A stretch of 58,133 bases of DNA, counting the filler, from Basidiobolus ranarum (Eukaryota), in the NCBI GenBank assembly GCA_040143965.1. It is 6 parts of 6 records of this genome, joined end to end, with 100 filler letters (N's around TTAATTAATTAA, not from the genome) between each part and the next. Parts side by side here need not be neighbours in the genome. Positions count along the whole stretch, not along the records: positions 1 to 9,625 come from JASJQH010000799.1; 5 more parts are not named here. One strand, written 5' to 3'. Positions 1 to 30,450 of this stretch are shown one piece after another. Each line of letters starts with the position of its first letter. Within the stretch, counting starts at the first letter, position 1. Made by a program: the position numbers and the translations under genes. The notes below the pieces were generated by a model. It worked only from the letters and a program-made list of their open reading frames with translations, was not told the origin of the DNA and made no database searches.

Positions 1-414
1 ATAGGCACCGGCCTCGTTACCACCATTGCCACTATCGCCATTACCATCACCGTTACCGCCTTTGCCATCATCACCACCACCATTACCAGCGCCGCCATTA
101 CCACCACCGTTTCCACCATTGCCGGAGTCGTAGGCACCAGCTCCATTACCGCCATTATCGTTATCACTACCACCATTTCCACCGTTGCCAGAGTCATAGA
201 CACCAGCTCCGTTACCGCCCTTTTCAGAGTGGTAGGCACCAGCTCTATTGCCGCCATTGCCATTATCTCCTGCATCTCCAGCACCGCCGTTAAAGAGATC
301 CTTAATGTCGTATGCTTCATTCCCTCTTGCTTGTAATCTTGGGTTTAGTGCAGCTGCATTAATAACGGCAATTCCAGAAAGAAGGCATAGTAATTTAGGA
401 GCGGAAAATTTCAT
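1..414 (-). CDS. Secreted Gly/Asn/Asp-rich repeat protein, 3' end cut off by window/contig start
   Basis: Manual translation from ATG at 414: MKFSAPKLLCLLSGIAVINAAALNPRLQARGNEAYDIKDLFNGGAG..., open to position 1. Signal-peptide-like N-terminus followed by repeats such as GNGAGAYDSGNGG and GNGAGVYDSGNGG. TATAAATA on the minus strand at 508-515. Absent from the ORF track because it has no stop. Confidence 0.85.
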   Translation of the reverse strand, partial: MKFSAPKLLCLLSGIAVINAAALNPRLQARGNEAYDIKDLFNGGAGDAGDNGNGGNRAGAYHSEKGGNGAGVYDSGNGGNGGSDNDNGGNGAGAYDSGNGGNGGGNGGAGNGGGDDGKGGNGDGNGDSGNGGNEAGAY

Positions 415-1537
415 TTTAGGAGTTGTAGTGGTGTAGAGAGTATCAAGTGGGTTCTATAAAATCTAAAGAAAACTTATGGATAATTTTTTGCATCGACTGA
501 TGGTCTCTATTTATATTCTTGTATTTCTATGATCTATCACTTTCTTTACCCCTTACTGACAGAATTATCATTTCTCCTATATCTGAGATGCGTATGCATG
601 GGGGCAAGGCACAAATGTTTATAATTGATATTCCCTCACCCCACATTCACCGCTTCACCCTATATTTCTACTCTCTACTTGAAAATATAGGTATCTAACT
701 GATGAAGAGTCTCAAACAATTTGACCAAGGGGCCTTGTGCGGGCTTAGGCCAACTAATTAGTTTACCCATCTGGTGTGGTTTGAAAGTTCTTCGTTGTAT
801 CGAGTTAGCGCCACAAGTGAATTTTACGCATGAATATACGACAAAACTTCAATCAATGCATGACAGGGTCGGATCAACGATTTAACAATTCTCAGCAAAT
901 AGCTACAGTTTCTGTTAGAGGAGATATGTACTAGCAATAAGTTAGATATCTTGGCTCTTTTTGTGAATAACATATTCATATATATAGATACCCACTACTC
1001 CATCCTATCTAGTGTAGATAGGTTAGGGCCACCGGAGATGTGCCACTCTATATATTGATCGTTCTTGCTTCCTTGGATTCTCTCATAAAACCTGGCAAGA
1101 GAAGTATTTTCCTAGGGACATTTCTGATATCATTCTCCTTTGTATCATCAACGTGCTTAAGAGTAAGTAAGGATATAATAAGGAAGTTGATATTCCTCTT
1201 CCCCTCTAGCACAACTCTAAAAAAGTGCTAATTACATATTTCTTTGTATTATCCTATTCACAATTGCTTATGCTGTTACCATTGTCACTAATTTATCCTC
1301 CTTCACTAACGCTGTTCTTCACAGTAGCATTTCATCCAATATACGTATGCTGTATACACCCAAGCCGTTGTTGCCAAGGAGAGCTTTTACCAGACAAATT
1401 TTCATCTGATCAAAACTTTATTTAGTTGCCAGTGAGAAAATGAGATTCGAGAAAATAACATTTATCTATGCTTGAATGGAATGAGGAGCATTAATCGTTG
1501 TCAAACCCCATTGCAGCAATGGGTCAGTCTTCAAAAC

Positions 1538-1929
1538 CTATCTACATTGAGCAACAAAATTTACTGCAATTTGACCATGGCTAATGTCATTATTACCTGG
1601 AAAACCACAAGCCACATTACTACATATATTGCAACCATGACTTTGCAACTGATGAAGTACCAAACAATTACTAGAACCAGCAATAGGGTTTGCTGTATTC
1701 TGCATAAAGGTGGCAATCCCTCCAAGTATGTGGCAGCTAGATGCAAACATAGCTCCGGGGCCATATATGCTCCCACCTGGAAGATTACATACAGTACTGA
1801 CTGACTGATTGAAACTGTTTCCTCTCATTGAATGCTGACTACTTGTTAGGCAGCTGATACTAAGGACATTCACTTGGTATAGAAGCTCATAGATGGTGAC
1901 AATGGAACAGGTCTGCTAATATATTTCAT
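1538..1929 (-). pseudogene. KP4 killer-toxin family homologue, frameshifted in the signal peptide
   Basis: ORF 1538-1873 aligns by eye to Ustilago KP4: LSISCLTSSQ~LGINCRGSSQ, GIATFMQNT~SISAYVQST, HGCNIC~HGCRVC, GNNDISHGQIAVNFVAQC~GNDVSRGQLTVNYVNSC. The likely ATG at 1929 (MKYISR) is out of frame (56 nt from the GTG), and the toxin frame has an upstream TAG. Confidence 0.8.
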
Positions 1930-1949
1930 ATTGAAAATTAATATGGATT

Positions 1950-3960
1950 GTGCTGTATTGCATCAGAATGTATGTTGTATATGTAGCCACATGCACTAAG
2001 AGTTGTGCTAAGCCTAGTAAACTTTAAAGCATGGCTAATTCTCTTATCTTCAATGAAGTATAAAAGAGCTTGCCAAACCTTTTGGCTTGGTGTCTATCTC
2101 AAAAAATAGTAGCTTCTTACTACCTGCCCAGTGTATCTCAAGCATTTCACATTCTATGGCTAGTTTTCATTCTGAAGCCTACTATTCTCCAGCATCCACA
2201 TAGCAGAAAGCCTTGCTGTCTAGAAGACCTACTCTTTGCTGCTAACTAGCAAATCATTGTGTTTCTCAAAACTCATATTAGTTAGACCTACTCACCTAAT
2301 ATCTCCTGCTTGAACTGTTCTAAGATTCTTCACTTAGCTCTGACCTTGGTTCAGTAAAGCTCAAGAATTGTTATTATGTTTCTTTAGGATACAATATCTA
2401 GCTTACTGGGAAACTCTGCTTTGTCAATCTTTTAACTTCAGCTTTGAATACTATGTTTCAGCTTGGTTTTTTTTAATATGTGGAATTCTTTTAATAAGCA
2501 AATATTTATCAGGTGCTTTGCATCTCCCTAACCCTAACTCAAATTCTAGAAGATTAATGTTGATGTCAGAATATACTATCATACAGATGAGACAAACCTA
2601 GTTTTGTTATTTTTATATGTAGATTGTTGTGTCATAGCCACTCATAACCTGTAGAATTTGGATAGAATCATGTGCTAATATCTTTAAAAGCATGATTCCA
2701 CTCAAATTAAACCTGTCAGGCAGGTTTTCAGGCATTTGAAGGGAAATATGGATCTGTGCTTAAAATACACTCATTCTGAATCAAGCATTGATTTGATAGG
2801 TTTCTCTGATACAAAGTGTGATATTGAAGCCAGGTGATCTGTAATAGGAAATATGTTTCTCTGCTGAAATGTGGTTATTTCTTGTAATTTAAGGTAGCAA
2901 CCTGGCTTAGCACTTCAAACAACAGAGGGAGAATATATGGCAGATTACAAAATACTCTAAGTGGAAATATGGCAGGGAAAGAGCTTAATAGATTTGAGCT
3001 ATTTCCAAAATTGACCAACTACTATATCTCAGTCAAATCAAAGCTGTATCAAATTAGCTTGAAAGCCCACTTTTTACACTTGAATCAAATATATAGATAT
3101 TAGACTTTGTATTTTTAGAGAGACTATAGAAAATATGCTCAATAACTCAACTCATTGTTCTACAGCAGATGTGATTGCTGAGATAATAACCAAACCATCA
3201 GCTAGGCAGAAACTCGAGAAATACAAACCTTTCTTAGAATTGGTTCAAATAGCTATATAGTTTAGGGACAATGTTGAAAATTACATAGCAGAAACATCTA
3301 TGTTGTCATACATAGGTTAGCATTTAGTAGTTCCATACTCCACTAATACAACATCTACTGTTCCCAATTGGAAATTACTTGATGTATTTTGTCATCTAAA
3401 GTGTTCTTTGATGTATACACTTTGTTAAACCTGTTGTAGAAGGTGCAAACTTTGAAGAAATGGGCACCAGGTACTATGTATTTCTTGTGAACCTGTCAAA
3501 TGTCCCAAGTATGTTGATTTGAATTAATCCTCATTCAAGCAGAGGACCATGCCTAAGTTCTCTGTCAAGCTCCACAACAATCTTGACAATTGCAAGCTCT
3601 CCAAGTTATAAATATTTCATTACATATAAGATGCCATGAATGCCAGTCTCTTGGTACCTCTTCATATACTGACAACCTTCAGGAAATAATATCCATCAGA
3701 AAAATTATATGCTACAATATTAGATTACTTGAATAACAACAATAGTTTCTCTACATATTCAGAAAGTAGTTTGCCTTTATTGTCCAATTCTTGGCAAGGT
3801 TTACGAATACAATAAAATAACCCTACCCTTTGGGGTCACTTCTAAACCACTAACCATTCTATTAACAAGCAATCTTCTCAGGGAATATCAAAGTCACAAA
3901 CTGTATCAACTAAAGCTAAATGATGAATCTTGGCCTATTTTATGAAGATCACTGACTGAA
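1950..3960. mobile_element. Nest of decayed Ty1/copia LTR-retrotransposon fragments
   Basis: Plus strand ~2790-3250 gives an interrupted copia RNase H (GFSD..., ALQTTEGEYMA, KYIDIR, ADVIAEIITKP), followed by a purine-rich tract and a TGTTGAAA LTR-like start at 3272. Integrase-like YKYFITY near 3610. PBS-like GGTTATGAG on the minus strand at 2641-2649. Many stops, strong CpG depletion. Confidence 0.75.
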
Positions 3961-4810
3961 TCTTTAAGCCAGTGTAATATTAATAATAAAAATCCATGGG
4001 CGCCAACAGCATTCATCTGTTAGGAAATTAGTACGTCATCTTTGTTTACAAGTTTCGAATTAATCACACTCCCAAATCCGGCAGGAATGTCACTCTACTT
4101 TCCCCTGATCAACCCTATAAAAATAGCACAATCGAAATAAAGCTGATTAGTCAACTTATCAGTGAATCAAGTCCCAAATTGCACTCACCTCAGGAACCAG
4201 CCTCAATATATTAATACCAATAGAATAAAATGGTAGCCCAGCAGTTTATTAGTAATGATTTCAATAGAATGCTAGAGACCAAAGTTAATCAATAGGTGGA
4301 CTTATGTGTTGGTACTGTCATGCAATGGCTCACTTACTACCATCCAAATGTCATGGAGATAGAGAAGGTTCTCTGCAGGGTTTAATACTAATTCCCATTC
4401 AATATAGCTCGTAAACAATTGAATTCAACGGCAAACGAATCCAATTCCTAGGACTTGGATGATCTTGTTCGAGCTTGAATCACAAACGAGTGTTTAAAAA
4501 TCACTTTTTCATACGAAGCTTATCTAGATAGCGATACAATTCTCTAGGCAACCTCATCATAACAGATGTGACGATGATTAACGTTGTGTTCTCTGAATGA
4601 CGAGGAGGAAAATCCTATATTAGCGATTTTATGATTTTAAAAATACCGGATTCTATGGAAAGTGGAATAGGAAAGTGGGATCAGGAAAGCGGTTGACAAC
4701 AAACTTTAGTACCGATTATCATGGAAAATCTGTAGTGTGCCCGAATCTATAAAATCAATCCATGGTACTCTTGCAATGTTCGTCGATCACTTGACTAAAC
4801 AACACACAAT

Positions 4811-5323
4811 ATGAAATTCCAAACATCCGTGATTATTCTCGCTTTCCTTGTCCTGTATTCTATGCAGATTGCTGCACAACACAGCGCCTCTGGAGAAAGT
4901 GATGTGTCGATTCCGACTGCTACTGATAGTATCGATCCTGATGTATCCACCACTGTTGCCGAGCCTGATTCTGTTTTACCCTCAACTGACGATAGCCCTG
5001 TGGAACCAACTGACTCGAGTGACGATAGCGTTCCCACAGGTGATTCTAGTGATAGCGTACCAAACCCGGGTGAAGTAGACCCAACGGACGGTTTACCTGA
5101 TTCTACAGACTCAGATAGCCAACCTGGCCCAAGTTCCGCTTCTTCGGGTGGAGAGTGTCAAGACGGGCAGTACCAATGTTCTGGGTCTAATTCCCCTGAT
5201 TTTCAGTGGTGTGTAGATGGTGCATGGGTGTCAAACACCTGCTCCGAGGGTACCATCTGTAAACCTGTTGAAGGAGATAGCATCGCTTGTGATTGGCAAG
5301 ATGGTGGAGAAGCTGAAGCGTAA
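4811..5323 (+). CDS. Secreted Ser/Asp/Pro-rich protein with a C-terminal CBM19-like chitin-binding module
   Basis: Signal peptide MKFQTSVIILAFLVLYSMQIAA, acidic low-complexity stalk, then CQDGQYQC...FQWCVDGAWVSNTCSEGTIC, matching the CBM19 pattern C-x2-G-x3-C...F-x2-C-x2-G-x-W-x4-C-x2-GT-x-C. TATAAAA at 4748. Confidence 0.85.
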   Translation: MKFQTSVIILAFLVLYSMQIAAQHSASGESDVSIPTATDSIDPDVSTTVAEPDSVLPSTDDSPVEPTDSSDDSVPTGDSSDSVPNPGEVDPTDGLPDSTDSDSQPGPSSASSGGECQDGQYQCSGSNSPDFQWCVDGAWVSNTCSEGTICKPVEGDSIACDWQDGGEAEA

Positions 5324-5718
5324 AGAACTTCTCCACACCCGAATACAAACATACAATTAGAGCAAAATGGTTCACTTCAAATGTAGCCTAGGTCCTCATA
5401 TGGATCCAAAGGAACTTTTTCTAAATTTGCTATTAAACAACTTCAAAGCAGAATACTCTCTTGATATTCTACCCATTATATTATTCCTATTAACATGGCT
5501 TTGGGTTGATGTATAATGGTGATAAACAAATCGAAAGAAACCATATGTCAAGGCGCTAAGCATGTAAAATAATTGTTGTAAGCAGAAAACTATCCTAAAT
5601 ATCTTATATAGATTACTATTTTATCATGTAGGCAATGATGAATCAATAATACGTTTATTACTCACTGAGAGGATCCCATGAATAAATATGCTTCAGGATA
5701 CAGAAATCTCTTGTGCAA

Positions 5719-6825
5719 CTATATTATAATACTATAAGCCCGGCCCCAATTTGAAATAACCTCTTTTACTGAGCATCGAGGTTTGATCAGAGGCCCTAAA
5801 TATACTCTTTGTGACACAGATTCCCGCAAGAAGAGCATATTCTCCAGCATGCTGTCGGCAACTTCTTCATCCTCAGGTATCATTCGAGGCACAGCATATT
5901 CCGGGGGTGGTGAGTGGCACATCTTAACGTCGTTTGCATTACATTGTGCATCTACATGGAATTGCCTATCAATGTTATCATCACGCTCTTTACTATGTGC
6001 CCAGTATCTGCGACTAGTGTAGTTCATCAAAATTGCACATCCTGCAAAGAGAGATGTAATAGAGGATATATCAGGGTCATCGCAACAATCACTTAACTCC
6101 AGCAGCATGCTTGCCGCTCTTAAACGCACTTCACCCACAGCCTCATGGCTAGTAATGTCGATAAAATGAGATAAACTCATCAGATCGTTTTCTTTGTCAT
6201 GCCTAGCCATGCTGTGAATATCGAAATTCAAGATACAGGCTTCTACACACATGTTTAGTACCCCAGGAGGCAGTTGCTCCAATTTTACACCTTTGAAGAC
6301 GATGAAACCCAAGGCACAAGCCAAAAATGCTCCTTCATCACTTCTATAACGTATGAATTCAAGATAGTCGTTCTGCATTATATTAATAAGCTCTTTCATA
6401 CATAAAAAGGACGTTTTTACTCGACACGCTGCCCACTGTAAGGCCAATAGATCACCAAATAGAGAGCCCAAGCTGGCATCACCATCAACAAATATGTCGA
6501 TCCATCTCCGCACACTGCGGCCGTTCGAGCTCAATACATCGAGGTTAAACTCCTGGGTAGACATTGGGGCTATACTATCTATAATGGCAGTTGCGGCAAC
6601 ATACATCCCTAACGCCCAGCCACGCTCAGTTCTGCCGGATGGCCCAAGAATATGTAGCACCGAATTTATACCCAACTCAGCTGCCTGAGTTTCAATTTTT
6701 CCGTAAACTTTCGCATTGACACCAAGAACGTCAACAGCATCGACAATTATATGCTCACCATTCCAGTTGATGGCGGAATAATCAAGTTGTTTAGTGCTCT
6801 GTTTTGAGAAGTGGTCACGCTTCAT
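5719..6825 (-). CDS. Non-canonical class I terpene synthase-like protein, resembling the ABA3 (alpha-ionylideneethane synthase) type
   Basis: Intronless 368-aa ORF. Motifs sit at terpene-synthase spacing: D83 in AIIDSI (degenerate Asp-rich site), YLEFIRYRSDEGA (R161 effector region), FDIHSMARHDKEND (201-214, NSE/DTE position), RRY (272-274). TATTTAAA upstream at ~6892-6899 on the minus strand. The CDS is near certain; the function is less so. Confidence 0.65.
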   Translation of the reverse strand: MKRDHFSKQSTKQLDYSAINWNGEHIIVDAVDVLGVNAKVYGKIETQAAELGINSVLHILGPSGRTERGWALGMYVAATAIIDSIAPMSTQEFNLDVLSSNGRSVRRWIDIFVDGDASLGSLFGDLLALQWAACRVKTSFLCMKELINIMQNDYLEFIRYRSDEGAFLACALGFIVFKGVKLEQLPPGVLNMCVEACILNFDIHSMARHDKENDLMSLSHFIDITSHEAVGEVRLRAASMLLELSDCCDDPDISSITSLFAGCAILMNYTSRRYWAHSKERDDNIDRQFHVDAQCNANDVKMCHSPPPEYAVPRMIPEDEEVADSMLENMLFLRESVSQRVYLGPLIKPRCSVKEVISNWGRAYSIII

Positions 6826-9484
6826 TGGTGCTGCAGTGGTAGTCTAACGGATAAGATTGAAGAAAATAGCAACCTTCTAAGCTCCATAACCTTTAAATAG
6901 TGGACAGCTCCGGAAGTAGTACTGGGGATGGATGAAGATAAGAATAGCACCGGGGATGAGTGAAGGAAGCTTATCAAATTATTAGAGACTGTATCACCCA
7001 TCTTCTCTGTGTGGCCATTTGCCACAACAAAGACCAACGCACATGTCTCACCTAGGTTGTGGTATTCTGCTTCAATACTAAATCAATCACCTAGATATAG
7101 GGCGTAATAGCACATTTCTAGTAATAATTTGATGAGTGTGTAATGGCCTATAGCAAGCAAAGCAATTAAGTAAAGGAATAACAAAATGGGAATGTCGTAC
7201 ATACGTTGATTCAATAGATAATGGTCAAAAGAAGATTAACTTTGTGCTTGTTTTCGGCGCAACCCCAAAGCTTAATATCTGAGTGCTTGGTTTAAAAGTG
7301 ACTCTGCTCAAGCCTATTATCATGTCCCTGCAGGCGTAGCTTATGCCATTGATGTATATCTGAACAAGCCAGGTTTAGATATCCAAGACGAATAATTGAC
7401 ATTCGAGACCGACACCTTGCTCCTGCGACTCCTTCTATATCCTTTCAGGATTTTTTTTGTATGGCACACTTGATTGTTGCCATCTATTTAGCACGGCAAA
7501 AAGCAGATTTGTCAGATTTTCATAATTGTCTATTGATATTCTTCGAAGAAAATTATATATTGTGTGTCTGATATATTGTGTGCCTGTAGGATTGCCCTGT
7601 GGTGCCCATTGACGGAAGGTACTGATACGATTCAGTGGTAGTGGATATGCCAGTAGTATTCCAACTCTAGCCCAGGCACTCAATTAGAGTATCCATAAGT
7701 GGAATTCTAACAAAAGAATGAACAAACAACTCAGATAAAGCGGCGAATTTGCTATCAATGGAAAGGCAATGTTCAACATACCTTGTTTGTTCCACAACCT
7801 AGGTATTTTCGGATTATGTAGGGTATAAAAAAGGAACACCTGAACACACAATAAGGGTATCAGATACAAATAGGAAAAGAAGAGTTTCTAAGCATTCTCA
7901 CACAGTTAATAAAGATGGGCAGTCAAGGGCCAATATAGGTATGTATTGTATTACTTTGTCTCTTCGTGCTCTGCAGTTATTAAATAGCCTAAGGGCTGTT
8001 TGTTACTCCACTTATTTGTTTCTGTATAACCTCTAGTGGTACTACTACGCTCAAGTGATACGAGAATAACCAGGGCAATATTAGAGTAAGCATCCTAGTA
8101 TATATGTAAAAAAAATTCTATGTTTAAGATAAAAGTAGTAATGATCTACATGAATCCTTCATATGATGGGGTCACTAGTAGCAGTGTCCGAAGAAATTAG
8201 GCTCTTGATGTACTGACTCGATGATATATTGTAATGGTTAGGTGTCCATATTGAATTTATAATCGGTCAATTGATTCCCTATTATATTTTCCATACAAGT
8301 CGGAGAGGCTGACTACATATCAAATTGAGTTTGGCACAGTTGATCCATAACCTCAAGGCCAAATAAATATATCCCCGGCCTTATGATAGCCAAGTGATAG
8401 ATATTCAAGATTCGTTGCGTGATATTACTTGTCTAACATAGTCATATAACTTTGGTTACATATATTAGTGATATATACTTTTAATAGCAATAATATATCT
8501 CAATTACACAATATGTTAGATCTGGAATACCACTCAACCAAATAAGAATAGCTGAGGTTTAGTGACTATAAATATTGATGCACCATAGCACTAATATTAG
8601 ACTGTGATAATGAATGCTGCTTCTTGACAACTCAGTCATGTAGGAATGGCAAAATCTTTGTTAAACAACTATACTTCAACCTTTAAGGCCCAAGTTTGTA
8701 GTTAACTGAAAATATCGATTATCTGTTGCTTCGAAACTTCCTATGCCTGGAATGCTATGCAACTCCGATACGAAGGAATTCATCTGTCTTTATGCCATGA
8801 AATATCTCCTTTAGTACATGGTGCGCTTCATACTTGGTACAGCATGATAGAGCCTTAGCAGAACAGCAGTTAGCGCTTCAAATAATACTTAGGTGGCAAA
8901 TTGTGCAGTCAAAGTTAGTGCAATATAACCCGATTAATACTTCAATATTACTCATTCTGTCCAACAGTGAAGGAAGTAGATTAACTGCCATAGAGGAAGA
9001 GTTTCTTTGTGAGAGATGCATTGCAAACATCTTGACATTCATCTTAGGTTGCAACAATGGTTTGCACTTTTTGAGGCCGTAGCTTCCATTCCTACAGTCT
9101 GAGCTGTGCATTTATCATCATTGTGTGACAAGTTAACACCACTCTAGAGATTATTAGATTTGACTTGTTTGGCTAGCCAGCTATTACTGAAAATTACTTT
9201 AGACTTATTTCGTACACATTAACCATATAACTTTCTTGGAAATGTCAAATGCTAGTTGCAAGTGGCTTGTGTACCATGACCATTCAAATCTCCAGCTCCT
9301 CTGAATGGAACTAGTGGGAACACTGGATTGGCCTTTAGACATTTGTGGACAATATAAACACTAATATCAAGGACATAAACATCTACATCCTCTCTGGTGC
9401 TAGTTGGACAAATGTATGAAGCACTAAATTCAATATTCGCAGAAAATAGATGGTTGAATCTCACAAAAGTTTGCTTGATGTATA

Positions 9485-9555
9485 GGGACCATTGTGCTAG
9501 CATATGAGATATTTATATGTATGAGGACCATTGTGCTTGAATATGAGATATCTAA
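9485..9555 (+). repeat. Imperfect ~39-bp tandem duplication
   Basis: GGACCATTGTGCT...ATATGAGATAT occurs twice in tandem. Confidence 0.8.
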
Positions 9556-9625
9556 ATTCAAATGTGCACAGTTATACCTCACTCTTTCCCTATTAATACG
9601 AATTATAGCACTGGTGAATCAACTT

Positions 9626-9725
9626 NNNNNNNNNNNNNNNNNNNNNNNNNNNNNNNNNNNNNNNNNNNNTTAATTAATTAANNNNNNNNNNNNNNNNNNN
9701 NNNNNNNNNNNNNNNNNNNNNNNNN
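9626..9725. other. Artificial contig spacer (N44-TTAATTAATTAA-N44)
   Basis: 100-nt gap containing a palindromic linker with stop codons in all six frames. Confidence 0.98.
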
Positions 9726-10292
9726 CAAGTAGTAATTGTGTAAAATTTGAGTTATGTTTTTTGCACATGTGTTGATCCATAGTTCTCTGAGATTGTAGCC
9801 AATCATGTGCAACTATTTTGCAAGATCTTGAAATTTCACTCCTGAAATTGAAAAAATTGATCAAAATCAAATCTAACTTGACAATTTTATGACATTAAGT
9901 AAATAGTCAATCCCAAATGGATTAAAATTGTGATGATTTTCCTACAATAACAATCTTCAAATTTCTGTTTGGGATCTGAGAACTTCTAAGTTTGTAAAAA
10001 TATTCCAAATTACCCCAAAGATAGCTCATTTTACTCCCGCAGATGTTCTGAACACAACCCCAGTGTTAGTTTTCTATATTTCCACCAAAAATGTATAAAT
10101 ACTTTATTTCTGGACAATAAATGATTATCTCACAAAGCTATTCACAACTCCACTTTTCTAAAGTTCCTCCAAACTGCCCATATTTTCCCACTAACTGTAA
10201 CTGTCAACTGATTACTCAATTAATCATCATGTGAAAACCATCAACTTCTCTAATTCTCCAAACCATATCCAACAGATTCCCAATACTCTAAC
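9726..10292. repeat. Dispersed repeat; inverted copy at 18387-19070
   Basis: 9726-9975 is the reverse complement of ~18820-19070, and ~10002-10190 of ~18387-18576. 10200-10292 resembles 48770-48856 and, in reverse, the start of 21338-21503. Confidence 0.9.
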
Positions 10293-11659
10293 AACTACAT
10301 CTTATTTTAATATATTGCACCTCCTCAAACTTATTCCTTCTCTATAACTTCTCAAAGTCCTATTTATAAAATTATTAGCAGCTTTTAAAGTATGCAGACA
10401 GACATGTTTTGCTATCCCTATTAATGTCAGTCAATCTGGAAACCAATGTGAATCAATCAGCAAAATTACAATGAAGGAATTTGAGCTGATTGCAACTGGG
10501 AAAAATATTATAAAATCCATTCATCATGTCATGAACCCAAGAACATTGTTTTCACAAATCTAACCTAAAAAATCACTAAAACAAGCAAAACTAAGCCATA
10601 TGAACTATGAATTAGCACATATTTTGGTTTTGCCCTAGATGGATCAAGATGACCAGGACTGATGATCTGCCATGAAGCAAGAACTCTGAGTGGAAACATA
10701 ACATGCTCAATGATTGCATTGGTTATAGCAATACTTTATTCATTACAGTAAGTACATCTCAATGTGATGTTTTATTTTTTTCATCCAAAATATGTTATGA
10801 TTGAGTTTGATAAGCAAATAGTGGAAAGTCAAAGATGTGAGGATTTAAAGCAAAATTGATCCGCTGGATTAAGATATTGAAGACTAAATGTAAATAGCTG
10901 CTAACCAATAGAGCCACTGATACTAATCATATGTAGATAATAAGCATAACTAGTTTGATGTTGGCAAAGTTAACACACTGTTTGAGTACAAAGATAACAT
11001 TGAAGAGGTGACCATATAAGAAGACACACTGGAATATTGCTACACTAGCTGGACTTTTTAATATTTTTAATATACGAGCATAGTTAAAACCAGATAAAAG
11101 CAACAAAACAAAAAAATGAACAGAACTTACTTTATCTTCAATTTGTGCCTCCATTTACTGAGATTAGGAAAGACTGAGATTCTATATAATTACAAATAGC
11201 TTTTAACTAGTCCCTCTTTATTTTACCAAGATATATTTCCCCATACCCAATTAGAGTATACTTGCAATACTTTTGATAACTTTGAAGTACTCAGATGTAT
11301 GATTATTTTGACCTTGTCCTAAAAGCCCTCAACCAAACACATATTTCATGGTCACTTCATTAAAAAATTTATTGAATTTGTATGCTTGAAGTCAATAAAG
11401 CCTCAATTGTCAACTTTCTACTCAATATATCAAAAAATGAATAAAAACAATTCTTATAGTACTCCCAAACACTGCCAACAAACTCCCAAAATACATCAAC
11501 ATATTGAAAAGACATATTTTTAATAGTGAAAAAGAAGCTATTGAATTGCAAAATATTAAATTTTAGCAGGAATATATTTTAGAAGGCAAAAAGTAAATTT
11601 CCTTAATGTTTTGACAGAAGAAAACCCTCATAAACAGACAACCAACTCCAACCATAACT

Positions 11660-11854: not shown

Positions 11855-13851
11855 TCTAGAAGAGCAGTAGTGTAGTAACAAAAAAGTGTGAAGTGTAGTA
11901 AGATGGATTTCCATATGAGCCATATATAATATCAACGCTGCTCCAAATATGAGTGAGACTGCCCCAGTGTATTCACATTGCATCAAGGCTGTATGTAAGC
12001 TTGCTGTTGATCTATATATCCATTTGGTTGCTCAATTGAATATAATTCCTTTGTCAATTTCAGGTTGGATATGCTACCAACTTGGAGCAGCAATTTATCA
12101 GGTAATTCACTCATCAACGTTCAACTTTTTAGTAAGCAAATGATTTCTCCTACGCACAGATTCAGTATTAAATGTTAATTTGGATCAAATCTTGCTACTT
12201 AAATGTGATAAAGCTGAGATTAGAGTAGTAACGAGGATGGTTGCTCCATTGTTTAGTGCCCGTATCAATTCTCTCACATACTCTTCCAGAATAAACAATG
12301 ACCTTCCTATAGCGTGCACACAGTAGAGGTGAGTAATGGAATTATAATTCTGATATTATTATAATTTGGAAGGGTATTTACCATCAAGAGACCTTGAATA
12401 CATGATCCTTTCGCAACAAATAGTCTTCGTAACAAATAATTGACTGAGGTGCTCAAAGTATTGAACTTAATCTATAGCTCCATTAACTTAGCTCTCAGTA
12501 ACATGCGTACCTAGAACTTGTGATATTTATAAATTGTTGAAGAACAATATATAGAGCATCATTTTTAAATGAATACTAATAACTGGTGTCGATGTAGATT
12601 TATTGTTAATACAGTAAGCCAAGTAATTATTTAATAGAATCTTCAATCGAATCTTCTCTAGTGGAAGGCCATGTAAGCGTTTAGTATGCGCTAGTAATGC
12701 TTGTAAATAAGATAACATGATTTGGTTTATTTATCCAATTCCGATTCTTCGTGCTTCTTTCTCAGTAATAACTATTAGCTTGAATATATATAACGCTCTG
12801 CTATATATGCCTCTCCCAGTATAGAGTATATTATGAAAATGCCAGGACAAGAGATCACTCTAGAAATCACTTTCAATGCATAAATTGCTAAAACAACATC
12901 TTTATTATTTATGCAAAGTTTTAATTTTTATAGTTGGTTTGAATTCTGATAATATGGTAAACCCCTATTCATTATATTATATTATATATTGATTGAGAAT
13001 GGCACACACAATTAATGTGAAGCACGCATTGATAATGGTTGAAAGTATACCGTAAACAGCTTGGCACTTATAAAGTATGGTATTTGGAAATATTCGACAC
13101 TGCATGGAACGTTGAGCTTTAACCGTAGCTAATTATATTCTATGTCCTTGATGAGCAAAAAATCCTATGCTTACTGTTTGTGGTAATTTCAGCGGAATAT
13201 GCGTAACTGCCAACCCTAACCCTAGCTGAATTATATCAAGAAATGGCGAGATTATTGATATACTAACCAAGAGTTTTTACAGATTGTAGTCAATTTTGTT
13301 CTTGAACTGGGTGGCGTTACGTATGGCTAATCCTACCTGCTATTCATAACAACAATCTCAAGTACAATTATAATCACAGTCAATGGATTATAGATCTAAA
13401 TTATCTTAAATGGTGGTGCCTGTAAAAATGAATACTAGCCCCGTTGTGAAGATCTAACTGAAGATCGATGTAACAAAGGAGTAATTCTGTTAAAGCCAAG
13501 AATATTACAACCATGCATGGAGCACTTGTTTTACTCACGCCTCGATTATGTTAACGTGTCAGTTGCAGTTACAAGGGTTGATATTTAAGCAAATGAAATA
13601 TATTCCATTCATTTACTACTTCATTAATTCAAGCAACAACTAGCCGTTAATATTAACAATAGCCAACTGATGCTAAAAGGTACTCCTCAGCGTAAAACAA
13701 TCAGTGTCTGGCTTTTCAAATTTCTATCTATCCTCTCGGTCCTGAATACACTTCATGGTTATTACGCTAGCATTAACATGTGATGGCAAACTGAACTTTA
13801 TTCCTGAGAGAAAATCTTAGATTCAGTACAATGTCCACTAAATTTGGCTCA

Positions 13852-14289
13852 CTAAGCTTCGGGCCACCAATCACTTTTATAGGTGGTGACTCTGCAGTAT
13901 TGCGCACCGCCAGGTTCTTTTGGATCGCAATCTTTTTCTCCACGGTCGGAATGTCTTCCGGTAAATTCATACTGACCAACTTCATCCACAATATGAATAC
14001 TTGCTGATGAGGCGATTCCTCCTATGCACTCAGTAATCCTGAACTTAAAGTTGCCCCAATCACTTCTGACAAACGCCGTGTCACATTGAGCTCCACCTCC
14101 TCCAATATTGGAGTTAGAGCTGCAATGAGCACGAGCTTTCTCACCGGTAGCACTGGTGATCGTAACTGCACAAGTAAGAAATGACCATAGCGGATTCATG
14201 GTTAGGAGTGCCTCGAAAGCTACTTGCTTCCCTTTTGCGGAAACCAAAGAGCAGAAAACAAATACTGGTAGAGCCTTCAGAAGATACAT
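13852..14289 (-). CDS. Small secreted Cys-containing protein, copy 1 (145 aa)
   Basis: Signal peptide ending VSA; six Cys in the mature part (C40, C56, C69, C88, C121, C132); intronless; TATAAAAA ~50 nt upstream; near-identical copy 1987 nt away. Confidence 0.9.
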   Translation of the reverse strand: MYLLKALPVFVFCSLVSAKGKQVAFEALLTMNPLWSFLTCAVTITSATGEKARAHCSSNSNIGGGGAQCDTAFVRSDWGNFKFRITECIGGIASSASIHIVDEVGQYEFTGRHSDRGEKDCDPKEPGGAQYCRVTTYKSDWWPEA

Positions 14290-15838
14290 GGCGGAAATGA
14301 AACCTTGGATGTGGGCTCTTTACTTTTGTCCCCTACTTTTATATCCTCTCACATTGCAATTTTCATTAATCAATACCCTTGTTGCTCGTACTTTGCATGG
14401 ATAGGTTCTTGGGAATATATCGTTGCTTGACTGAGGGCCCTAGTACTACTGAAGAAAATGAATACATGTCCGGAAATTACAGCCAATAAAAGTTCCACTT
14501 TTCTCACTAACAGCGCAACTAATGGGTGATTTAATGGTGTACAACATCCACAGTACTAGCTAAGACAACTCTTTGGAAAGAATACATGCACTATTGAGAG
14601 TAGTACAATCTATCAACTGTTCAATGCCATTAGTTAGTAACGATGTTCCAAATCATCCAAGTTTTCTAGCATAAAATGATCTAGTTGGGAGTGCTAACCT
14701 AAGCTCCTCAACGCCTCTCCATTTCAGTAAAATAAACCCATACCAAGTATCAGGTTACACTAGCCTTCACTCTATTTAAAAAAAGGGTGGATTGCACGTG
14801 TACAGCACATCACCAATCAACTATTTCTCCCAGTTACCTGTGGTATGTCCTGAAGAAGATAAACAAATTAGTATCTGTAATTAGTATCTGGGCTGAGTTT
14901 ACCAAAAGCGTAGTTCATCAAGTTTGGAGTAAATGAGTTGGTCAAATCTATCCACCTCATTGGTAGTCCAAATGACTGAATGTATATTTAGAGGGTATAG
15001 TAAACGCTCATATTTCAACCTAATGTTTACTGTTTATCTACGATAAAAAACGTGTATCAATCAGGATTTTCATTAGTGCATCAGGAACTCAGTTACCAAA
15101 ATAGCAACTATTGGTCAATGGGAGAACCATATTATATGATAAGTTCAATTGATTTATTATTTATTCCCAACATTTACTTTTGATTCCCAAGACATATGGC
15201 TCAGCAGTAGCAGGTAGTTCGAGGGCAGCATGCAGTTAGAGAGTAGCAGGTAGTTACAGAGTACTAGATCTGGTAGAGATACGAGAGTGGTGTGAAGCTA
15301 TTGTTTGGCTATCCGGTATGGGATTTCCCTTGAAGTTGCCAAAGAGACCTCCATGAATACTGGAATAAAAGCCTCACAAATAGGCCATGGTACAAAAATC
15401 TCCTGAATCAGAAAAGGGTGGCCAGATTTAGCTCGCCTACAATATTCATGACAATAGATCCGAACAATCAGATGATAAAGCAAAAGTATTAACCCAATGG
15501 TACGTCCAATGATGGATTATCATAGAAATGTAATGCCATCATTGGCTAAGAATAAACTTCTGCTATTCACGCGTTGAATCACTAATAAACACAGTATCTA
15601 CTATTGTAAGCAGAAACCAAAAGTAGAAACCGTAACCAGTATACGGGATCTAAGGATGTTGCACAAGGATAGATAACACTGTTACTACATACTGTTAATC
15701 AGTATCCGTAATCCTGCGAAGCAACTCCGCTCTGTAAAAAATATTTTGTAACGCTAACATTATCACATGGTGGCAAACTGATCTTTATTCCTGAGAGAAA
15801 ATCTTGGATTCAGAACAATGTCCACTAAATTTGGCCCA

Positions 15839-16276
15839 CTAAGCTTCGGGCCACCAATCCCTCTTATAGGTGGTGACTCTGCAGTATTGCGCACCGCCAG
15901 GTTCTTTTGGATCGCAATCTTTTTCTCCACGGTCGGAATGTCTTCCGGTAAATTCATACTGACCAACTTCATCCACAATATGAATACTTGCTGATGAGGC
16001 GATTCCTCCTATGCACTCAGTAATCCTGAACTTAAAGTTGCCCCAATCACTTCTGACAAACGCCGTGTCACATTGAGCTCCACCTCCTCCAATATTGGAG
16101 TTAGAGCTGCAATGAGCACGAGCTTTCTCACCGGTAGCACTGGTGATCGTAACTGCACAAGTAAGAAATGACCATAGCGGATTCATGGTTAGGAGTGCCT
16201 CGAAAGCTACTTGCTTCCCTTTTGCGGAAACCAAAGAGCAGAAAACAAATACTGGTAGAGCCTTCAGAAGATACAT
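15839..16276 (-). CDS. Small secreted Cys-containing protein, copy 2 (145 aa)
   Basis: Identical to copy 1 except S139R. Confidence 0.9.
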   Translation of the reverse strand: MYLLKALPVFVFCSLVSAKGKQVAFEALLTMNPLWSFLTCAVTITSATGEKARAHCSSNSNIGGGGAQCDTAFVRSDWGNFKFRITECIGGIASSASIHIVDEVGQYEFTGRHSDRGEKDCDPKEPGGAQYCRVTTYKRDWWPEA

Positions 16277-18386
16277 GGCGGAAATGAAACCTTGGATGTG
16301 GGCTCTTTACTTTTGTCCCCTACTTTTATATCCTCTCACACTGCAATTTTCATTAATCAATACCCTTGTTGCTCGTACTTTGCATGGATAGGTTCTTGTG
16401 AATATATCGTTGCTTGACTGAGGGCCCTAGTACTACTGAAGAAAATGAATACATGTCCAGAAATTACAGCCAATACAAGTTCCACATTCCATGTTAGCGG
16501 CACAGCTAATGGGTGAATATATGGTGTACAACATCTAGAACATAAACTAAGACGACGCATTTGAAAAAATCCCTTCACTCTTGGGGGTAGTACAATCTAT
16601 CAATTCTTCATTGATGTGACATCTCATCCAGGTTTTCTGCCATGAAATAAACTAGTTTGGAATACTAACAAGCTCCTCATCGCATTACTATTTTAGTAAA
16701 ATAAACCCATACCATAGCATCAGGTTACACTGACCCGATGTTACTCACCGTATTTAAAAAAGGGGGTGGATTAACGGTTCGCATGTGTGTAACATGCACC
16801 AATCAATTATTTCTCCCTGTCACCTGCGGTATTTGTCGTGATGGGATTATGTAATTAGTATCTGGGCTGAATTTGCCAGAAGTGAAGTTCGCCAAGTTTA
16901 GAGTGAATGAGTCAGTTGAACTCATCTAAATCCTTGGTACTCCAAATCATTCAAAAACTTGTAGTTACCACATATACTTTATTAATAGCAAAACACTAAA
17001 GCCATTGCTACTCCCCACGTTATAATTGATTTGTGATATGAGTACTTGTTTAAAGCATAACGAAGTTGACAACATTGTCTTGTAAGGCTAACAATAAATA
17101 TTTTACTAAAGTTTAGTCTACTATTGCAGAAACAGGTTAGGCTTACTCTACAATGAGACAAGCAGGGGTATAACAAGGGATCAGATGCCAAGCAAAGATG
17201 CGTTGGTTTATCTGGAAAAAAGTATGTCAGTGCGCGATGCTTTCTTCGGTGTATTGGGATCGGTATCAATGGGAATGGTGGTGTCCACGACCAAGTTATA
17301 CAAAGGACATTAATTAGTGGGGAAATTGGAATCATGTGGAGCATATACTTTTACATCGGCACCTGAGTCATGTTCTAATGCTAAAAGAAAATTCACAGAA
17401 CTACTGACTATTTTGATTACGACAAGTGCTATTTCCTGCTTGTGGTGTAGACTCATCAAAGCTGTGGTTGACTTTTTGCTTTCTAAACTTGTTGTAAAAG
17501 CCAGATACATATTGAGATACTTCTAAAATAGCAAAGAGTCTCATTTACCTGAAAACACACATTTCTTCAGTATGGGGAGTTTAGAAGTTAACATGCATTA
17601 AACAAAATATCATATGTCTGTTGAAGCAAGCATTTGTTCTCTTACTCAACTCCCTTTGACATTCAGGTGTGATGTTATTTCATATTTATCAGCATCTATG
17701 GTACTGTTGAGGCATTTTGCCAGTTTGTTGAAAGTGGCTTAGAGAACTAGAAGAATTGGTGCATTTCACCTATTAATTGGTTCAGTAGAAACTTCACATG
17801 TATACTTTTAGCAAGAGATAAACAAAGTAATTAAGCAAATATGTTAAGGTATGGTCTAGGAACAGGTGTGTAGAGCTTTAGGCTTCTACAACTGGTTTGA
17901 AAAAATATTTGTCAAGAACTCTTAAGTAGGTAAAATATGCTGATTAAATTCCCATTCAGATTAAAAGGAGCTCTGCTGTATCCAAGAGAACATAAATCAA
18001 AAGTCTTGTATTAGGGTATAAATATTCTGGTAAGCGTAAGGGAGGGTAGGGATGAAAAGAGGGGGTCTAGTGCATGCAGTCCTTTCAGTATAAAAAGAAA
18101 GCAGGGGGTATGAGCGAAGCAATCCCACATGTAAAAAAAGAAAGCAGTGGGTTTGGGAGATGCAATCCCCCATGTATTCCCTTGTGTCACAATATACTCA
18201 AGTTACTGGTATATGGGAAGAATTGGGCATGCTCAAGTTTTACAAAGGTCAGATCTCCAAACTTTCACACATCTGAGAAAGAGACACTGTTTCCGATATA
18301 TTACACAACCTTTTCTGGATTTTATAATTTTTACAAATTATGAGAAATTTCTCAGATATTTGATACTTTTTAATTTATTATCAATA

Positions 18387-19341: not shown

Positions 19342-19441
19342 NNNNNNNNNNNNNNNNNNNNNNNNNNNNNNNNNNNNNNNNNNNNTTAATTAATTAANNN
19401 NNNNNNNNNNNNNNNNNNNNNNNNNNNNNNNNNNNNNNNNN
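19342..19441. other. Artificial contig spacer
   Basis: N44-TTAATTAATTAA-N44. Confidence 0.98.
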
Positions 19442-29054: not shown

Positions 29055-29154
29055 NNNNNNNNNNNNNNNNNNNNNNNNNNNNNNNNNNNNNNNNNNNNTT
29101 AATTAATTAANNNNNNNNNNNNNNNNNNNNNNNNNNNNNNNNNNNNNNNNNNNN
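29055..29154. other. Artificial contig spacer
   Basis: N44-TTAATTAATTAA-N44. Confidence 0.98.
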
Positions 29155-30450
29155 ATAGTGCATCCAGCCTTACTGAACACGAAATTTAATCCTTGAGTTG
29201 TTGCTTGGCTTACTGAGAGTAGATTCTTGGCTATATTTGGTACATAGAGTACATCATCTAATTTTAGTGTATAGTCATCACCTGTGTAGACTTTCCTTGT
29301 TTGGATTGGTTTTGAGCTGGAAAATCAATCTTTTTTGTTTGACATATACTGGGAAGCTCTTGTACCACATTTCTGAGTCTTCTTTATTGGTAACTGATAG
29401 GGCAGACACAAATAGATGATCCCTAACCATGTTTACTTGACTTGTTTCTTCTGATTTTAGCTTTTTGATGAAAATCCTTTACTGGAATCTTCAATTCAAT
29501 GTCCTGCTTTCCTGCAATACTTGCAGATGATTGATTTCCTATGAGTGGCACATTATGGAAGCCTGTTGGACATTTTACAGCTCCAAAAAATGCCTGTTCT
29601 GCATTATTTTGCTGAAAATTAGATCTTCTAAATTCCTCATCCAAAAGCCTAGCACCAACATATTGAATTTTCAATGGCTTTGATCTTGCTTTGAGAGCAG
29701 TTATGAGTTTCTCAAACTCCTCTGGCAGACTCCCAAGTAGTTTCATGACTAGGTCATCTTCATTTAGAGGTACTCCAATGTATGAGTGCTGATCTGCCAT
29801 AGTTTTTATCCAATTTTTATGATTAAGCATAGAATCATTAGAATTCATATGAATTCAGAATAATTTTCATCTCAGATATAGCCTATTGGCCAGACTTTTA
29901 ATCTCATTCAGTCCCTCAAGTATTCCCCAAGTATATTGGATGTTATTGGCTGATTGTATATGCCTCAATTGAGAGTCTCTGAAATGCAGACACAGTGTAG
30001 AAAGTGCTTTCCTCTGCTTGTTGTGAAAGGCAAGGATAGCTTCTGGTGGTCCCTTTGGCTCTCTTTCTTCTCCTGTAACAGATCCCCAAAGGTCCTTGTC
30101 TTTTAGCCCCATTTGCATCTGGAACTTAAAAAGATGAAAGTCTTCACATCATACTTCTCTGTGGATACAACAATATTGGTAATAGTTTTAGTAGATATTC
30201 CTTTGACAGCTAGCTTGGGGCTCATAACCAGACAAAACTGTTTAGGGGATTTGAAAGTGTTTTGGACAAGATTTATATTAGTGAATTAGATACTTAAGTT
30301 ATATTGAATTGAATATGTGCTATTTATAATATATTTTAAGTAGGACTATTGGATGTGCTTAGATCATAACAAACATGCCTGACTGTAACATTCTCATAAT
30401 GGTTGATGACCAATATAAATGACACATATGAAAATCACTACAATAATCTG
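29155..30450 (-). mobile_element. Ty1/copia 5' part: LTR-like sequence, PBS and decayed gag(-protease)
   Basis: Gag-like MQMGLKDKDLWGSVTGEE and DDLVMKLLGSLPEEFEKLITAL (UBN2-type). PBS TGGTTATGAGCCC at 30218-30230. Sequence 30260-30370 recurs at ~37840-37950. Frameshifts present. Confidence 0.88.

Follow-up and report, generated by a model that had tools for sequence, protein, structure and literature searches.

A probable terpene cyclase of a remote ABA3-like subfamily in the fungus Basidiobolus ranarum

Does a 368-residue protein of Basidiobolus ranarum, in which the canonical terpene-synthase motifs are missing from the catalytic positions, belong among the terpene cyclases, and if so, to which class? 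The protein (P0001) came to attention as a candidate ABA3-like terpene cyclase and is encoded by a complete ATG-to-stop coding sequence, 368 amino acids plus stop, at 5719..6825 on the minus strand. The window, by which we mean the whole stretch of DNA analysed (58,133 nucleotides), consists of six pieces of ~9.6 kb separated by N44-TTAATTAATTAA-N44 spacers, as shown by the positions of the N runs and the letters of one spacer, so that the gene context of P0001 is one contig of 9625 bases, positions 1–9625. The frame runs for 374 codons from stop to stop, whereas 200 mononucleotide-shuffled versions of the window gave longest ORFs with a mean of 135 codons and a maximum of 213; together with the existence of homologues, this rules out a spurious ORF. 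A preliminary description of the locus had called the gene intronless, and both the uninterrupted frame and the homology to relatives, which spans residues ~21 to ~276, agree with this, so far as can be judged from the DNA alone. A possible polyadenylation signal, AATAAA (5654..5659, minus strand; weak evidence), follows the stop codon at a distance of 60 bases. The GC content of the gene is 0.435 and its GC3 is 0.417, compared with GC3 values of 0.31–0.44 for nine further ORFs in the window. Genes are sparse around P0001.

No Pfam or NCBIfam model matched P0001 (0 families at E up to 10), and the earlier expectation that such a protein would be missed by standard terpene HMMs was borne out for the wider family, with 0 of 12 members matching terpene-synthase Pfam models at the same cut-off. 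Word-indexed searches returned either the query alone or the query plus P0006; no close orthologue was present in 5.8 billion clusters, among which P0001 is a singleton, and no orthologue above ~30% identity was found anywhere searched. An exhaustive phmmer search of 1.84 billion representatives did recover five relatives (E 5.8e-7 to 3.1e-4), the named ones being Streptomyces ‘hypothetical proteins’ (P0004/P0007, P0008 and P0005), of which P0005 is a natural fusion of a SAM methyltransferase and a P0001 relative. A literature search for a prior description of this subfamily gave ABA3 proper only, the comparison covering sources other than the bacterial homologues in Supplementary Table 5 of PMC11695735.

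Single-sequence searches with P0001 gave no link to ABA3 or to any terpene synthase, and phmmer of P0001 alone against the PDB returned chance-level GlmU matches only (E 0.9). A link did emerge with a five-sequence family profile (alignment A2), for which the sole PDB matches below E 1 were 8zaf_A/8zag_A, the chains of SkABA3 from Shimazuella kribbensis (E 1.4e-3 over 194 positions); neither this profile nor phmmer of P0001 reported a match to the BcABA3 or RuABA3 chains. The gap between the P0001 family and SkABA3 was spanned by a bridging clade of Streptomycetaceae and Pseudomonas proteins (P0009–P0013), which aligned to the family with an hhalign probability of 95.7% in local mode and 97.4% (E 3.9e-11) in global mode, and to SkABA3 with E 7.5e-8 over 220 positions, the RY pair included. 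The Streptomyces and bridging relatives are 21–25% identical to P0001 in the family alignment and are true homologues that share every invariant residue with it but, unlike the fungal protein, are bacterial and operonic. On these alignments, the connection of P0001 to ABA3 is remote, at the superfamily level only.

ABA3-type proteins were recognised as terpene cyclases in 2018, and their structures followed in 2025, as described in PMC11695735. According to that report, BcABA3 and RuABA3 are fungal (2Z,4E)-alpha-ionylideneethane synthases of abscisic-acid clusters, the assayed ABA3 types ionise FPP, with BcABA3 also cyclising it, and one bacterial member has been tested, its product still to be identified (PMC11695735). 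The class is further marked by a homodimeric state and by the Mg2+ dependence with which FPP is ionised or cyclised.

Structure prediction led to the same group of proteins. AF2 applied to the single sequence of P0001 was unusable (pLDDT 34.3), but a model built from a 12-sequence alignment reached pLDDT 64 and pTM 0.67, which is middling overall. The better-modelled part is a helical catalytic core, residues 42–276 (5998..6702, minus strand), which aligns to the relatives and to the ABA3 structures and in which 10-residue blocks had mean pLDDT values of 61–89; residues 270–317 fell below 50. With this model, Foldseek placed ABA3 chains at ranks 1–9 of 350,542 chains, and VIA-align against 48,161 PDB representatives placed SkABA3 first (Z 17.9, rmsd 4.0, 282 residues aligned) and BcABA3 second (Z 16.9). 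All of the best 50 of these 48,161 representatives have the terpene-synthase fold. For P0001, ESM-Atlas features independently pointed towards terpene-synthase clusters (0.95, 212/256 features), its neighbours there being TRI5 and Terpene_syn_C_2, while a structure search with ESM-Atlas’s own model was uninformative, yielding unrelated folds only (TM 0.21–0.31). The model thus has the alpha-helical fold of class I terpenoid cyclases, as the preliminary description had anticipated, and its best matches are the ABA3 crystal structures. The fold and sequence evidence are not fully independent, because the ABA3-like bridging clade was in the folding alignment.

The canonical class I synthases came next, with VenA (7Y9G) at Z 16.6–16.7 and LrdC (6OH6) at 16.2 among 48 canonical entries listed at Z 13–16.7, so that the lead of ABA3 over them is only ~1 Z unit, which VIA-align treats as a tie. 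These enzymes, selinadiene synthase (4OKM) and aristolochene synthase included (Z 15–16.7), have in common with P0001 the cyclase fold, the RY pair and an expected ionisation-initiated mechanism. Such closeness, with the TRI5 and Terpene_syn_C_2 neighbours in ESM-Atlas, is what would be seen if P0001 were a degenerate canonical synthase that had lost its Asp-rich motifs independently and had come to resemble ABA3 by convergence. We regard this as highly improbable, given that the significant sequence match is towards ABA3 only, that no family member is recognised by the terpene-synthase models (P0001 itself, unlike the canonical enzymes, matching none of PF19086, PF06330 and PF03936), and that the motif replacing NSE/DTE aligns gap-free, residue for residue, with that of SkABA3.

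Are the residues expected of an ABA3-type active site present? The four elements picked out in the preliminary description, namely D83, RYRSD (159–163), FDIHSMARHDKENDLMSLSHF (201–221) and RRY (272–274), all lie at exactly the positions given there. Its accompanying claim that P0001 has no DDxxD or NSE/DTE motif held for NSE/DTE, but a literal DDNID is present at residues 282–286 and a DDPD at 249–252. Neither coincides with the place of the canonical Asp-rich helix, and DDNID falls after the RY pair, in a region of pLDDT <50 where the relatives are unaligned. At the catalytic positions themselves P0001 carries I-I-D-S-I and F-D-x6-R-H-x2-E and thus, unlike canonical class I synthases, has neither DDxxD/E on the equivalent of helix D nor NSE/DTE.

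This arrangement is that of SkABA3 (PDB 8ZAF, apo; 8ZAG, with PPi and Mg2+), which is the best match of P0001 in both sequence and structure. Both proteins are without canonical Asp-rich motifs in the core, have an Arg after a Y-x-R-x-R-type stretch, carry D-x6-[KR]-H-x2-E in place of NSE/DTE, and have RRY ~63–64 residues past the His; their lengths are close, at 368 residues for P0001 and 403 for the deposited SkABA3 chain. They differ in that identity is ~13% over the structural alignment, in the replacement of SkABA3 E80 by Asp and of Tyr200 by Phe in P0001, in the lack of a P0001 counterpart to the Cys3Ser Zn site, in C-terminal thirds that are unrelated in sequence, and in that SkABA3 was shown to ionise FPP (PMC11695735) whereas P0001 is known as a sequence and a model. 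BcABA3 and RuABA3 (PDB 8ZAC, 8ZAD and 8ZAE) share the fold (Z 16.9, 16.7 and 17.2) and the diphosphate-ligand set with P0001, and like it are products of fungal genes outside the canonical terpene-synthase families, but are ~7–8% identical to it in the structural alignment; in BcABA3 there are in addition a Cys4 Zn site and an N-terminus that is long and variable.

In ABA3 proteins the pyrophosphate is bound, in BcABA3 numbering, by R202, K249, H250, R312, Y242 and Y313 (PMC11695735). The basic members of this set are kept in P0001. In the family-profile alignment, R161 of RYRSD (6337..6351, minus strand), R208 and H209 pair with SkABA3 R161, K207 and H208, and R273 of RRY (6004..6012, minus strand) is assigned by motif and spacing, there being no residue-level alignment at that point; R273 comes 64 residues after H209, where SkABA3 has 63 between H208 and R271. 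R161 is invariant and corresponds to BcABA3 R202, a pyrophosphate ligand whose Ala mutant gives no product; more broadly, the BcABA3 equivalents of R161, R208 and H209 are reported as needed for activity, H250 partly (PMC11695735). The named P0001 residues thus fall on pyrophosphate ligands described there for SkABA3 and BcABA3. Of the two Tyr ligands, P0001 keeps Y274, which relatives have as Tyr or Trp; the place of Y242 is taken by F201, a position that is Phe or His in relatives and Phe in the Streptomyces clade. The motif that contains it (201–221; 6163..6225, minus strand) contributes F201, D202, R208, H209 and E212. The form of this motif given for ABA3 proteins in the preliminary description is that of SkABA3, the ABA3 protein whose letters were compared.

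The metal-binding side is less direct. A strictly conserved Glu of ABA3 (BcABA3 E124, SkABA3 E80) coordinates the Mg2+ cluster (PMC11695735), and P0001 instead has an acidic Asp, D83 (6577..6579, minus strand). D83 pairs with E106 of P0009 in both a MAFFT alignment (A5) and the global hhalign, and this P0009 Glu falls, by HMMER, on E93 of chain 8zaf_A, which is native SkABA3 E80. We infer by this transitive route that D83 is the likely equivalent of the ABA3 Glu, an equivalence placed no higher because the direct alignment of the family profile to SkABA3 is shifted by 3–4 residues around D83. Members of the Streptomyces clade also have Asp at this position; P0006 and the bridging clade have Glu.

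Beyond the RY pair the proteins part company. The ABA3 Zn2+ site sits in the loop between helices alpha13 and alpha14 and is Cys4, or Cys3Ser in SkABA3 (PMC11695735). By sequence pattern P0001 has no Cys4 counterpart, its post-RY Cys residues being at 295, 303 and 351 only, with no CxxC; its C-terminal extension (residues 277–368; 5722..5997, minus strand) is lineage-specific and poorly modelled, with two predicted helices (320–340 and 353–367). The bacterial relatives stop 30–60 residues past the RY pair and so are without the region of the Zn2+ site altogether.

Of the residues singled out for mutagenesis in the preliminary description, R161, D202, H209, E212 and R273 do not vary in either of two six-sequence alignments (A1 and A4); the first four of these, together with E195, Y154 and G165, are invariant in 12 of 12 sequences once the bridging clade is added (A5). 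Aligned to the liganded crystal structures, the conserved residues would line one cavity.

Taken with the predicted fold and the remote homology, this conservation supports the original proposal of a very divergent ABA3-like cyclase. We consider it likely, though well short of certain, that the product of the ORF is a functional but highly divergent cyclase of the class I terpenoid type in a small unnamed family, a remote sister of ABA3 (BcABA3, RuABA3 and SkABA3); P0001 is probably a terpene cyclase and would represent a new, remote subfamily of ABA3-like enzymes. If the ABA3 crystal structures are a guide, a prenyl diphosphate, most likely FPP, would bind in the central cavity of the all-alpha bundle, its diphosphate gripped by R161, R208, H209 and the R273–Y274 pair, with a water-rich Mg2+ cluster held by the single acidic residue D83 where ABA3 has Glu. 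Ionisation would then give an allylic cation, which a hydrophobic lower pocket may fold into a hydrocarbon or alcohol. The role of D83 in metal binding, the substrate, the cyclisation and activity in the fungus are all to be read in this conditional sense.

The bacterial relatives sit in terpene-type neighbourhoods. Their loci were sought with a bacterial sub-alignment (A3), and neighbouring genes were typed by Pfam and NCBIfam. Three loci belong to the closest clade. One Streptomyces locus (L002) has, in this order, a polyprenyl synthase, the relative, a P450 and a geranylgeranyl-reductase-family enzyme, with no methyltransferase. In two others (L001 and L009) the relative is accompanied by a SAM methyltransferase and an amine-oxidase/CrtI-like FAD enzyme, L009 also having a polyprenyl synthase, and the bridging-clade gene for P0009 adjoins a P450. 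The family is rare. In genome sampling, at least 1 of 401 genomes of the seed genome’s phylum (the seed genome) and at least 2 of 401 of its family carried a member, these counts being lower bounds as at most 5 first-look candidates were scored per genome. Two further matches in the phylum sample (E 0.003 and 0.009 over 29–44 positions) were taken to be chance matches.

The nearest bacterial homologues come with a SAM methyltransferase, coupled or fused, so the ancestral substrate may be methylated. An alternative is that P0001 has a terpene-synthase fold and binds a prenyl diphosphate but is no cyclase. It might then act as a prenyltransferase, make an acyclic olefin or alcohol, or be specific for a methylated, non-canonical prenyl diphosphate. 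The fold does house other chemistries, the N-prenyltransferase DabA being among our structural matches (Z 13.8). We nevertheless judge a non-cyclase to be unlikely: of the two ABA3 types assayed, both ionise FPP and one, BcABA3, also cyclises it (PMC11695735), locus L002 manages without a methyltransferase, and the methyltransferases of the relatives’ loci match generic class I models only, scoring 39–44 bits with the GPP-methyltransferase model against a cut-off of 400. On the fungal contig, the ORFs of at least 100 amino acids that were scanned include no methyltransferase.

The surroundings of the fungal gene differ from those of BcABA3, which adjoins two P450s and an SDR. No P450, SDR or prenyl synthase was found among ORFs of at least 100 amino acids within 1–9625, and no terpenoid-pathway gene was found on the 9.6-kb contig. 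The earlier remark that no P450 or SDR lies nearby therefore stands within the contig and reaches no further, since the pieces of the window are joined by spacers.

In a tree whose root on the P0009 clade is an assumption, P0001 is a long-branched sister of the Streptomyces clade (1.56 changes per column), not nested within it; P0006 also has a long branch. Recent horizontal transfer or contamination is unsupported, as P0001 is not within the Streptomyces clade and its GC3 resembles that of other window ORFs. An ancient transfer, in either direction, may have occurred.

Alternatively, the gene could be a pseudo-enzyme or relic, an orphaned copy, perhaps of ancient descent from another domain, in which the fold was kept while catalysis was lost or the gene fell silent. 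The singleton status and long branch of P0001, its gene-poor surroundings with no pathway partners on the contig, the Glu-to-Asp and Tyr-to-Phe replacements and the unique C-terminus would all fit, yet we find this reading quite unlikely. The frame of 368 codons is unbroken; P0001 keeps all the columns that do not vary among the five relatives, as purifying selection would predict; F201 and D83 are common to the Streptomyces clade, whose genes sit in operons; and in GC and GC3 the gene does not differ from ORFs on other pieces of the window. A functional ABA3-like cyclase remains our preferred interpretation.

A broader scenario is possible, although we hold it only tentatively and with more doubt than belief. 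P0001, the Streptomyces proteins and P0006 would form a third, undescribed ABA3-like branch, with Asp for Glu and no Zn domain, whose bacterial members make methylated non-canonical terpenoids with, or fused to, a SAM methyltransferase and with a dedicated short-chain prenyl synthase; the fungal copy, acquired or retained long ago by an early-diverging gut-associated fungus, would make a terpene scaffold new to fungi.

The range and chemistry of ABA3-type cyclases have barely been explored. With P0001 and its relatives, the class would come to include proteins that neither Pfam nor NCBIfam recognises, and would gain a variant metal-binding solution in which Asp stands for Glu, Phe for Tyr, and the Zn site is absent. 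New terpenoid scaffolds, some of them perhaps methylated, could be sought directly through the bacterial operons and the methyltransferase fusion, and the conserved residue set provides a search pattern for mining more hidden cyclases. For the fungus, P0001 would bring the ABA3-like class into an early-diverging lineage.

The gene of interest is a 368-codon ATG-to-stop open reading frame (ORF) at 5719–6825 on the minus strand (374 codons from stop to stop), which far exceeds every other frame nearby in length; across 200 shuffled versions of the window, the longest frame had a mean length of 135 codons and a maximum of 213. Its composition (GC 0.435, GC3 0.417) is like that of nine other window ORFs (GC3 0.31–0.44), and an AATAAA is found 60 bases past its stop. 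The positions given in the preliminary description for D83, RYRSD (159–163), a 21-residue stretch (201–221) and RRY (272–274) were exact, and a pattern search likewise found no NSE/DTE motif in the protein. The claim that DDxxD is missing was wrong in letter, as DDNID is present at 282–286, but right in substance, because DDNID lies beyond the RY pair, in a region that is poorly predicted in the structural model and where the relatives’ sequences are not aligned with it.

N runs spaced about every 9.7 kb correspond to five artificial spacers (9626–9725, 19342–19441, 29055–29154, 38761–38860 and 48451–48550), each an all-frame stop linker of the form N44-TTAATTAATTAA-N44 (read in one spacer and inferred for the other four from identical N-run geometry), between six pieces that become steadily shorter, from 9625 bases down to 9583. 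In the protein database, the contig given for the encoded protein is likewise 9625 bases long. As the window is made of joined pieces, the real neighbourhood of the cyclase-like gene is restricted to 1–9625, and genes on separate pieces are not adjacent in the genome. The 2.8 kb upstream of the gene holds no ORF above 93 codons. Convergent with its 3′ end is a 170-amino-acid ORF (4811–5323, plus strand) for which there was no Pfam match; it begins like a signal peptide, continues as a long acidic stretch rich in Ser, Asp and Pro, and ends in a Cys-rich module. The same contig piece carries, on the minus strand, a 125-codon frame with a Kp4 domain of fungal killer-toxin-like fold (1538–1915; Pfam E 1.4e-9, 38.5 bits against a cut-off of 27.8) and an ORF with Gly/Asn-rich (GNGG-type) repeats and a signal-peptide-like start, open at the contig end (1–453). 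Among the scanned ORFs of 1–9625 (100 amino acids or more), none encodes a P450, an SDR, a methyltransferase or a prenyl synthase; the earlier remark that no P450 or SDR lies nearby is thus correct for this piece, although such absence says little about a cluster.

Other pieces held features of separate interest. Two near-identical, secreted-looking, Cys-containing frames of 155 codons, without a Pfam match, form a tandem duplication (13759–14319 and 15746–16306, minus strand; spacing ~1987 bases, 96% identity over a 300-nt repeat core). A copia-type LTR retrotransposon gag fragment lies at 29423–29854 on the minus strand (Pfam Retrotran_gag_2, E 1.7e-13), and an uninterrupted 308-codon Cof-type HAD phosphatase at 49665–50591 on the plus strand (Hydrolase_3, E 1.2e-49), intronless and bacterial-looking, might reflect inter-domain transfer. 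A 6PF2K exon on another piece gives a weak pointer to Zoopagomycota, the most frequent phylum among the seven members of known phylum in its best ESM-Atlas cluster.

The 368-residue protein, hereafter the window protein, matched nothing in Pfam (E up to 10) or NCBIfam, and a word-indexed search of 5.8 billion clusters recovered the protein alone. An exhaustive phmmer search of 1.84 billion representatives revealed five relatives (E 5.8e-7 to 3.1e-4, 25–29% identity), of which those with a name are Streptomyces ‘hypothetical proteins’, while P0006 and two others carry none. P0005 (Streptomyces, 641 amino acids) owes its label of SAM-dependent methyltransferase to a class I methyltransferase domain fused to the N-terminal side of its homologous domain. 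Residues W21, G102, R135, Y154, R161, G165, L172, G179, E195, D202, H204, R208, H209, E212, Y269 and R273 were invariant in six-sequence alignments. The expectation that such proteins are probably missed by standard terpene HMMs was borne out, with none of 12 sequences matching terpene-synthase Pfam models (E up to 10).

When all PDB sequences were searched with a profile built from five members of the family (A2), three matched at E up to 10. The best, 8zaf_A and 8zag_A (E 1.4e-3, 194 positions), are SkABA3, a bacterial ABA3-type cyclase from Shimazuella kribbensis (PMC11695735); the third was a haem protein at chance level (E 1.4). In the alignment with 8zaf (chain numbering is native + 13, as deduced from residues named in PMC11695735), R161, F201, R208 and H209 of the window protein pair with R161, Y200, K207 and H208 of SkABA3 and with R202, Y242, K249 and H250 of BcABA3, and E195, D202 and E212 pair with SkABA3 E194, D201 and E211, whose BcABA3 counterparts are not named in the available text of that paper.

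A profile search of 401 Streptomyces-family genomes added one further protein, P0009 (353 amino acids, E 2.3e-9), whose own relatives (42–47% identity to it) are from Pseudomonas wherever named. P0009, a Streptomycetaceae protein annotated merely as hypothetical, is ABA3-like with Glu at the metal position. Alone it matched 8zaf at E 8.8e-5 and the window protein at a pairwise BLASTP E of 3e-6. A profile built from this bridging clade (A6) matched 8zaf across 220 positions, RY pair included, with an E of 7.5e-8, and hhalign joined it to the window protein’s family profile (A4) both locally (95.7%, E 9.3e-9, 105 columns) and globally (97.4%, E 3.9e-11, 292 columns). MAFFT and global hhalign agree in placing D83 on the Glu of a bridging-clade C-E-S-R-G motif, which HMMER places on E80 of SkABA3, a Mg2+-coordinating Glu (PMC11695735). 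We infer through this bridge, the direct A2–8zaf alignment being off by 3–4 residues around D83, that D83 is the counterpart of the ABA3 metal-binding Glu.

AlphaFold2 (AF2) gave a useless model from the sequence alone (pLDDT 34), but with a 12-sequence alignment that included the bridging clade, and without templates, it reached pLDDT 64 and pTM 0.67, with 10-residue block means of 61 to 89 across residues 41–270 and below 50 at 1–41 and 270–317. Foldseek against 350,542 PDB chains placed ABA3 chains at ranks 1–9 (E 4.5e-3 to 0.17, TM 0.41–0.55), followed by canonical class I synthases, so that the structural check proposed in the preliminary description returned the alpha-helical terpene-synthase fold with ABA3 foremost. 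Independently of Foldseek, VIA-align over 48,161 representatives ranked SkABA3 (Z 17.9, rmsd 4.0, 282 aligned) and BcABA3 (Z 16.9) ahead of VenA (16.6), Copu9 (16.5) and LrdC (16.2), with the terpene-synthase fold in all of the best 50 rows. ABA3 leads the canonical synthases by about one Z unit, a tie by VIA-align’s standard; the fold assignment itself is firm, but our preference for ABA3 over a canonical synthase is drawn mainly from the sequence comparisons. The ABA3 entries date from December 2024, later than the AF2 weights, and no templates were used, so the ABA3 match does not stem from AF2 having been trained on those structures, although the bridging clade was in its input alignment. 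ESM-Atlas features of the window protein also fell in terpene-synthase clusters (0.95, 212/256 features).

The functional argument of greatest weight comes from the relatives’ gene neighbours and the natural methyltransferase fusion. Isoprenoid-type or tailoring partners were present at all three closest-clade bacterial loci and at the one bridging-clade locus. At Streptomyces locus L002, a polyprenyl synthase gene, whose 3′ end overlaps the start of the relative’s gene, is followed by the relative, a P450 and an enzyme of the geranylgeranyl-reductase family, which scores 237.7 bits on TIGR02032 (cut-off 158.8). At L001 (Streptomyces, 7899–11216), the relative overlaps start/stop with a SAM methyltransferase, beside an amine-oxidase/CrtI/HpnE-like FAD enzyme; metagenomic L009 (5728–10387) has the same three genes and then a polyprenyl synthase. 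At L008 (9715–12028, minus strand), the P0009 gene abuts a P450 and adjoins a TrmB/LuxR-type regulator. The L001 and L009 operons and the P0005 fusion are candidates for a methylated-terpenoid pathway. The locus methyltransferases match generic models only (39–44 bits for the GPP C-methyltransferase model, against a cut-off of 400), and prenyl-diphosphate methylation is therefore offered as a hypothesis.

By analogy with RuABA3/FSPP and SkABA3/PPi (PMC11695735), the window protein would bind a prenyl diphosphate whose diphosphate group is anchored by R161, R208, H209, R273 and Y274, and a water-rich Mg2+ cluster would be held by one acidic side chain, D83; ionisation would then start a carbocation cascade in a hydrophobic lower pocket. 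FPP may serve as a first guess for the substrate, since both assayed ABA3 types use it (PMC11695735) and the bacterial operons’ prenyl synthases get their highest scores from models of short-chain FPP/GPP synthases, yet under the model cut-offs. Compared with ABA3, the window protein has Asp in place of Glu and Phe in place of BcABA3 Tyr242, is without the Zn(Cys) motif and has a unique 92-residue tail.

In a tree of 12 sequences (371 columns), rooted by assumption on the bridging clade, the window protein was sister to a five-member Streptomyces-type clade (support 81/83) on a long branch of its own (1.56), with P0006 outside both. Recent transfer of the gene is not supported, as the tree does not nest the protein within the bacterial sequences and its gene resembles other window ORFs in composition; base composition fails to separate candidate horizontally acquired from fungal-origin genes of Basidiobolus, according to the available text of PMC7466969. 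Ancient transfer, in either direction, is possible. The same source reports that introns are absent from 61% of the candidate acquired genes versus 36% of fungal-origin genes, so an intronless gene fits either origin, in keeping with the earlier caution that it is compatible with, but not proof of, horizontal origin.

Taken together, the window protein is very likely a homologue of ABA3 with the terpene-cyclase fold, and it is probably an active terpene synthase or cyclase, as predicted. The ‘divergent ABA3-like cyclase’ of the preliminary description holds for fold and remote homology; three ABA3 hallmarks failed and the link is at superfamily level only, which places the family as an unnamed sister family outside ABA3 proper. 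A literature search, whose scope stopped short of the list of bacterial homologues that supplements PMC11695735, found no description of the subfamily. ABA3-type cyclases are already known, and the new element is this subfamily beside them: for natural-product enzymology, a cyclase family that has stayed hidden but can be tested, in which the metal-binding site is a variant one, bacterial members are coupled to methyltransferases and only one member is eukaryotic.
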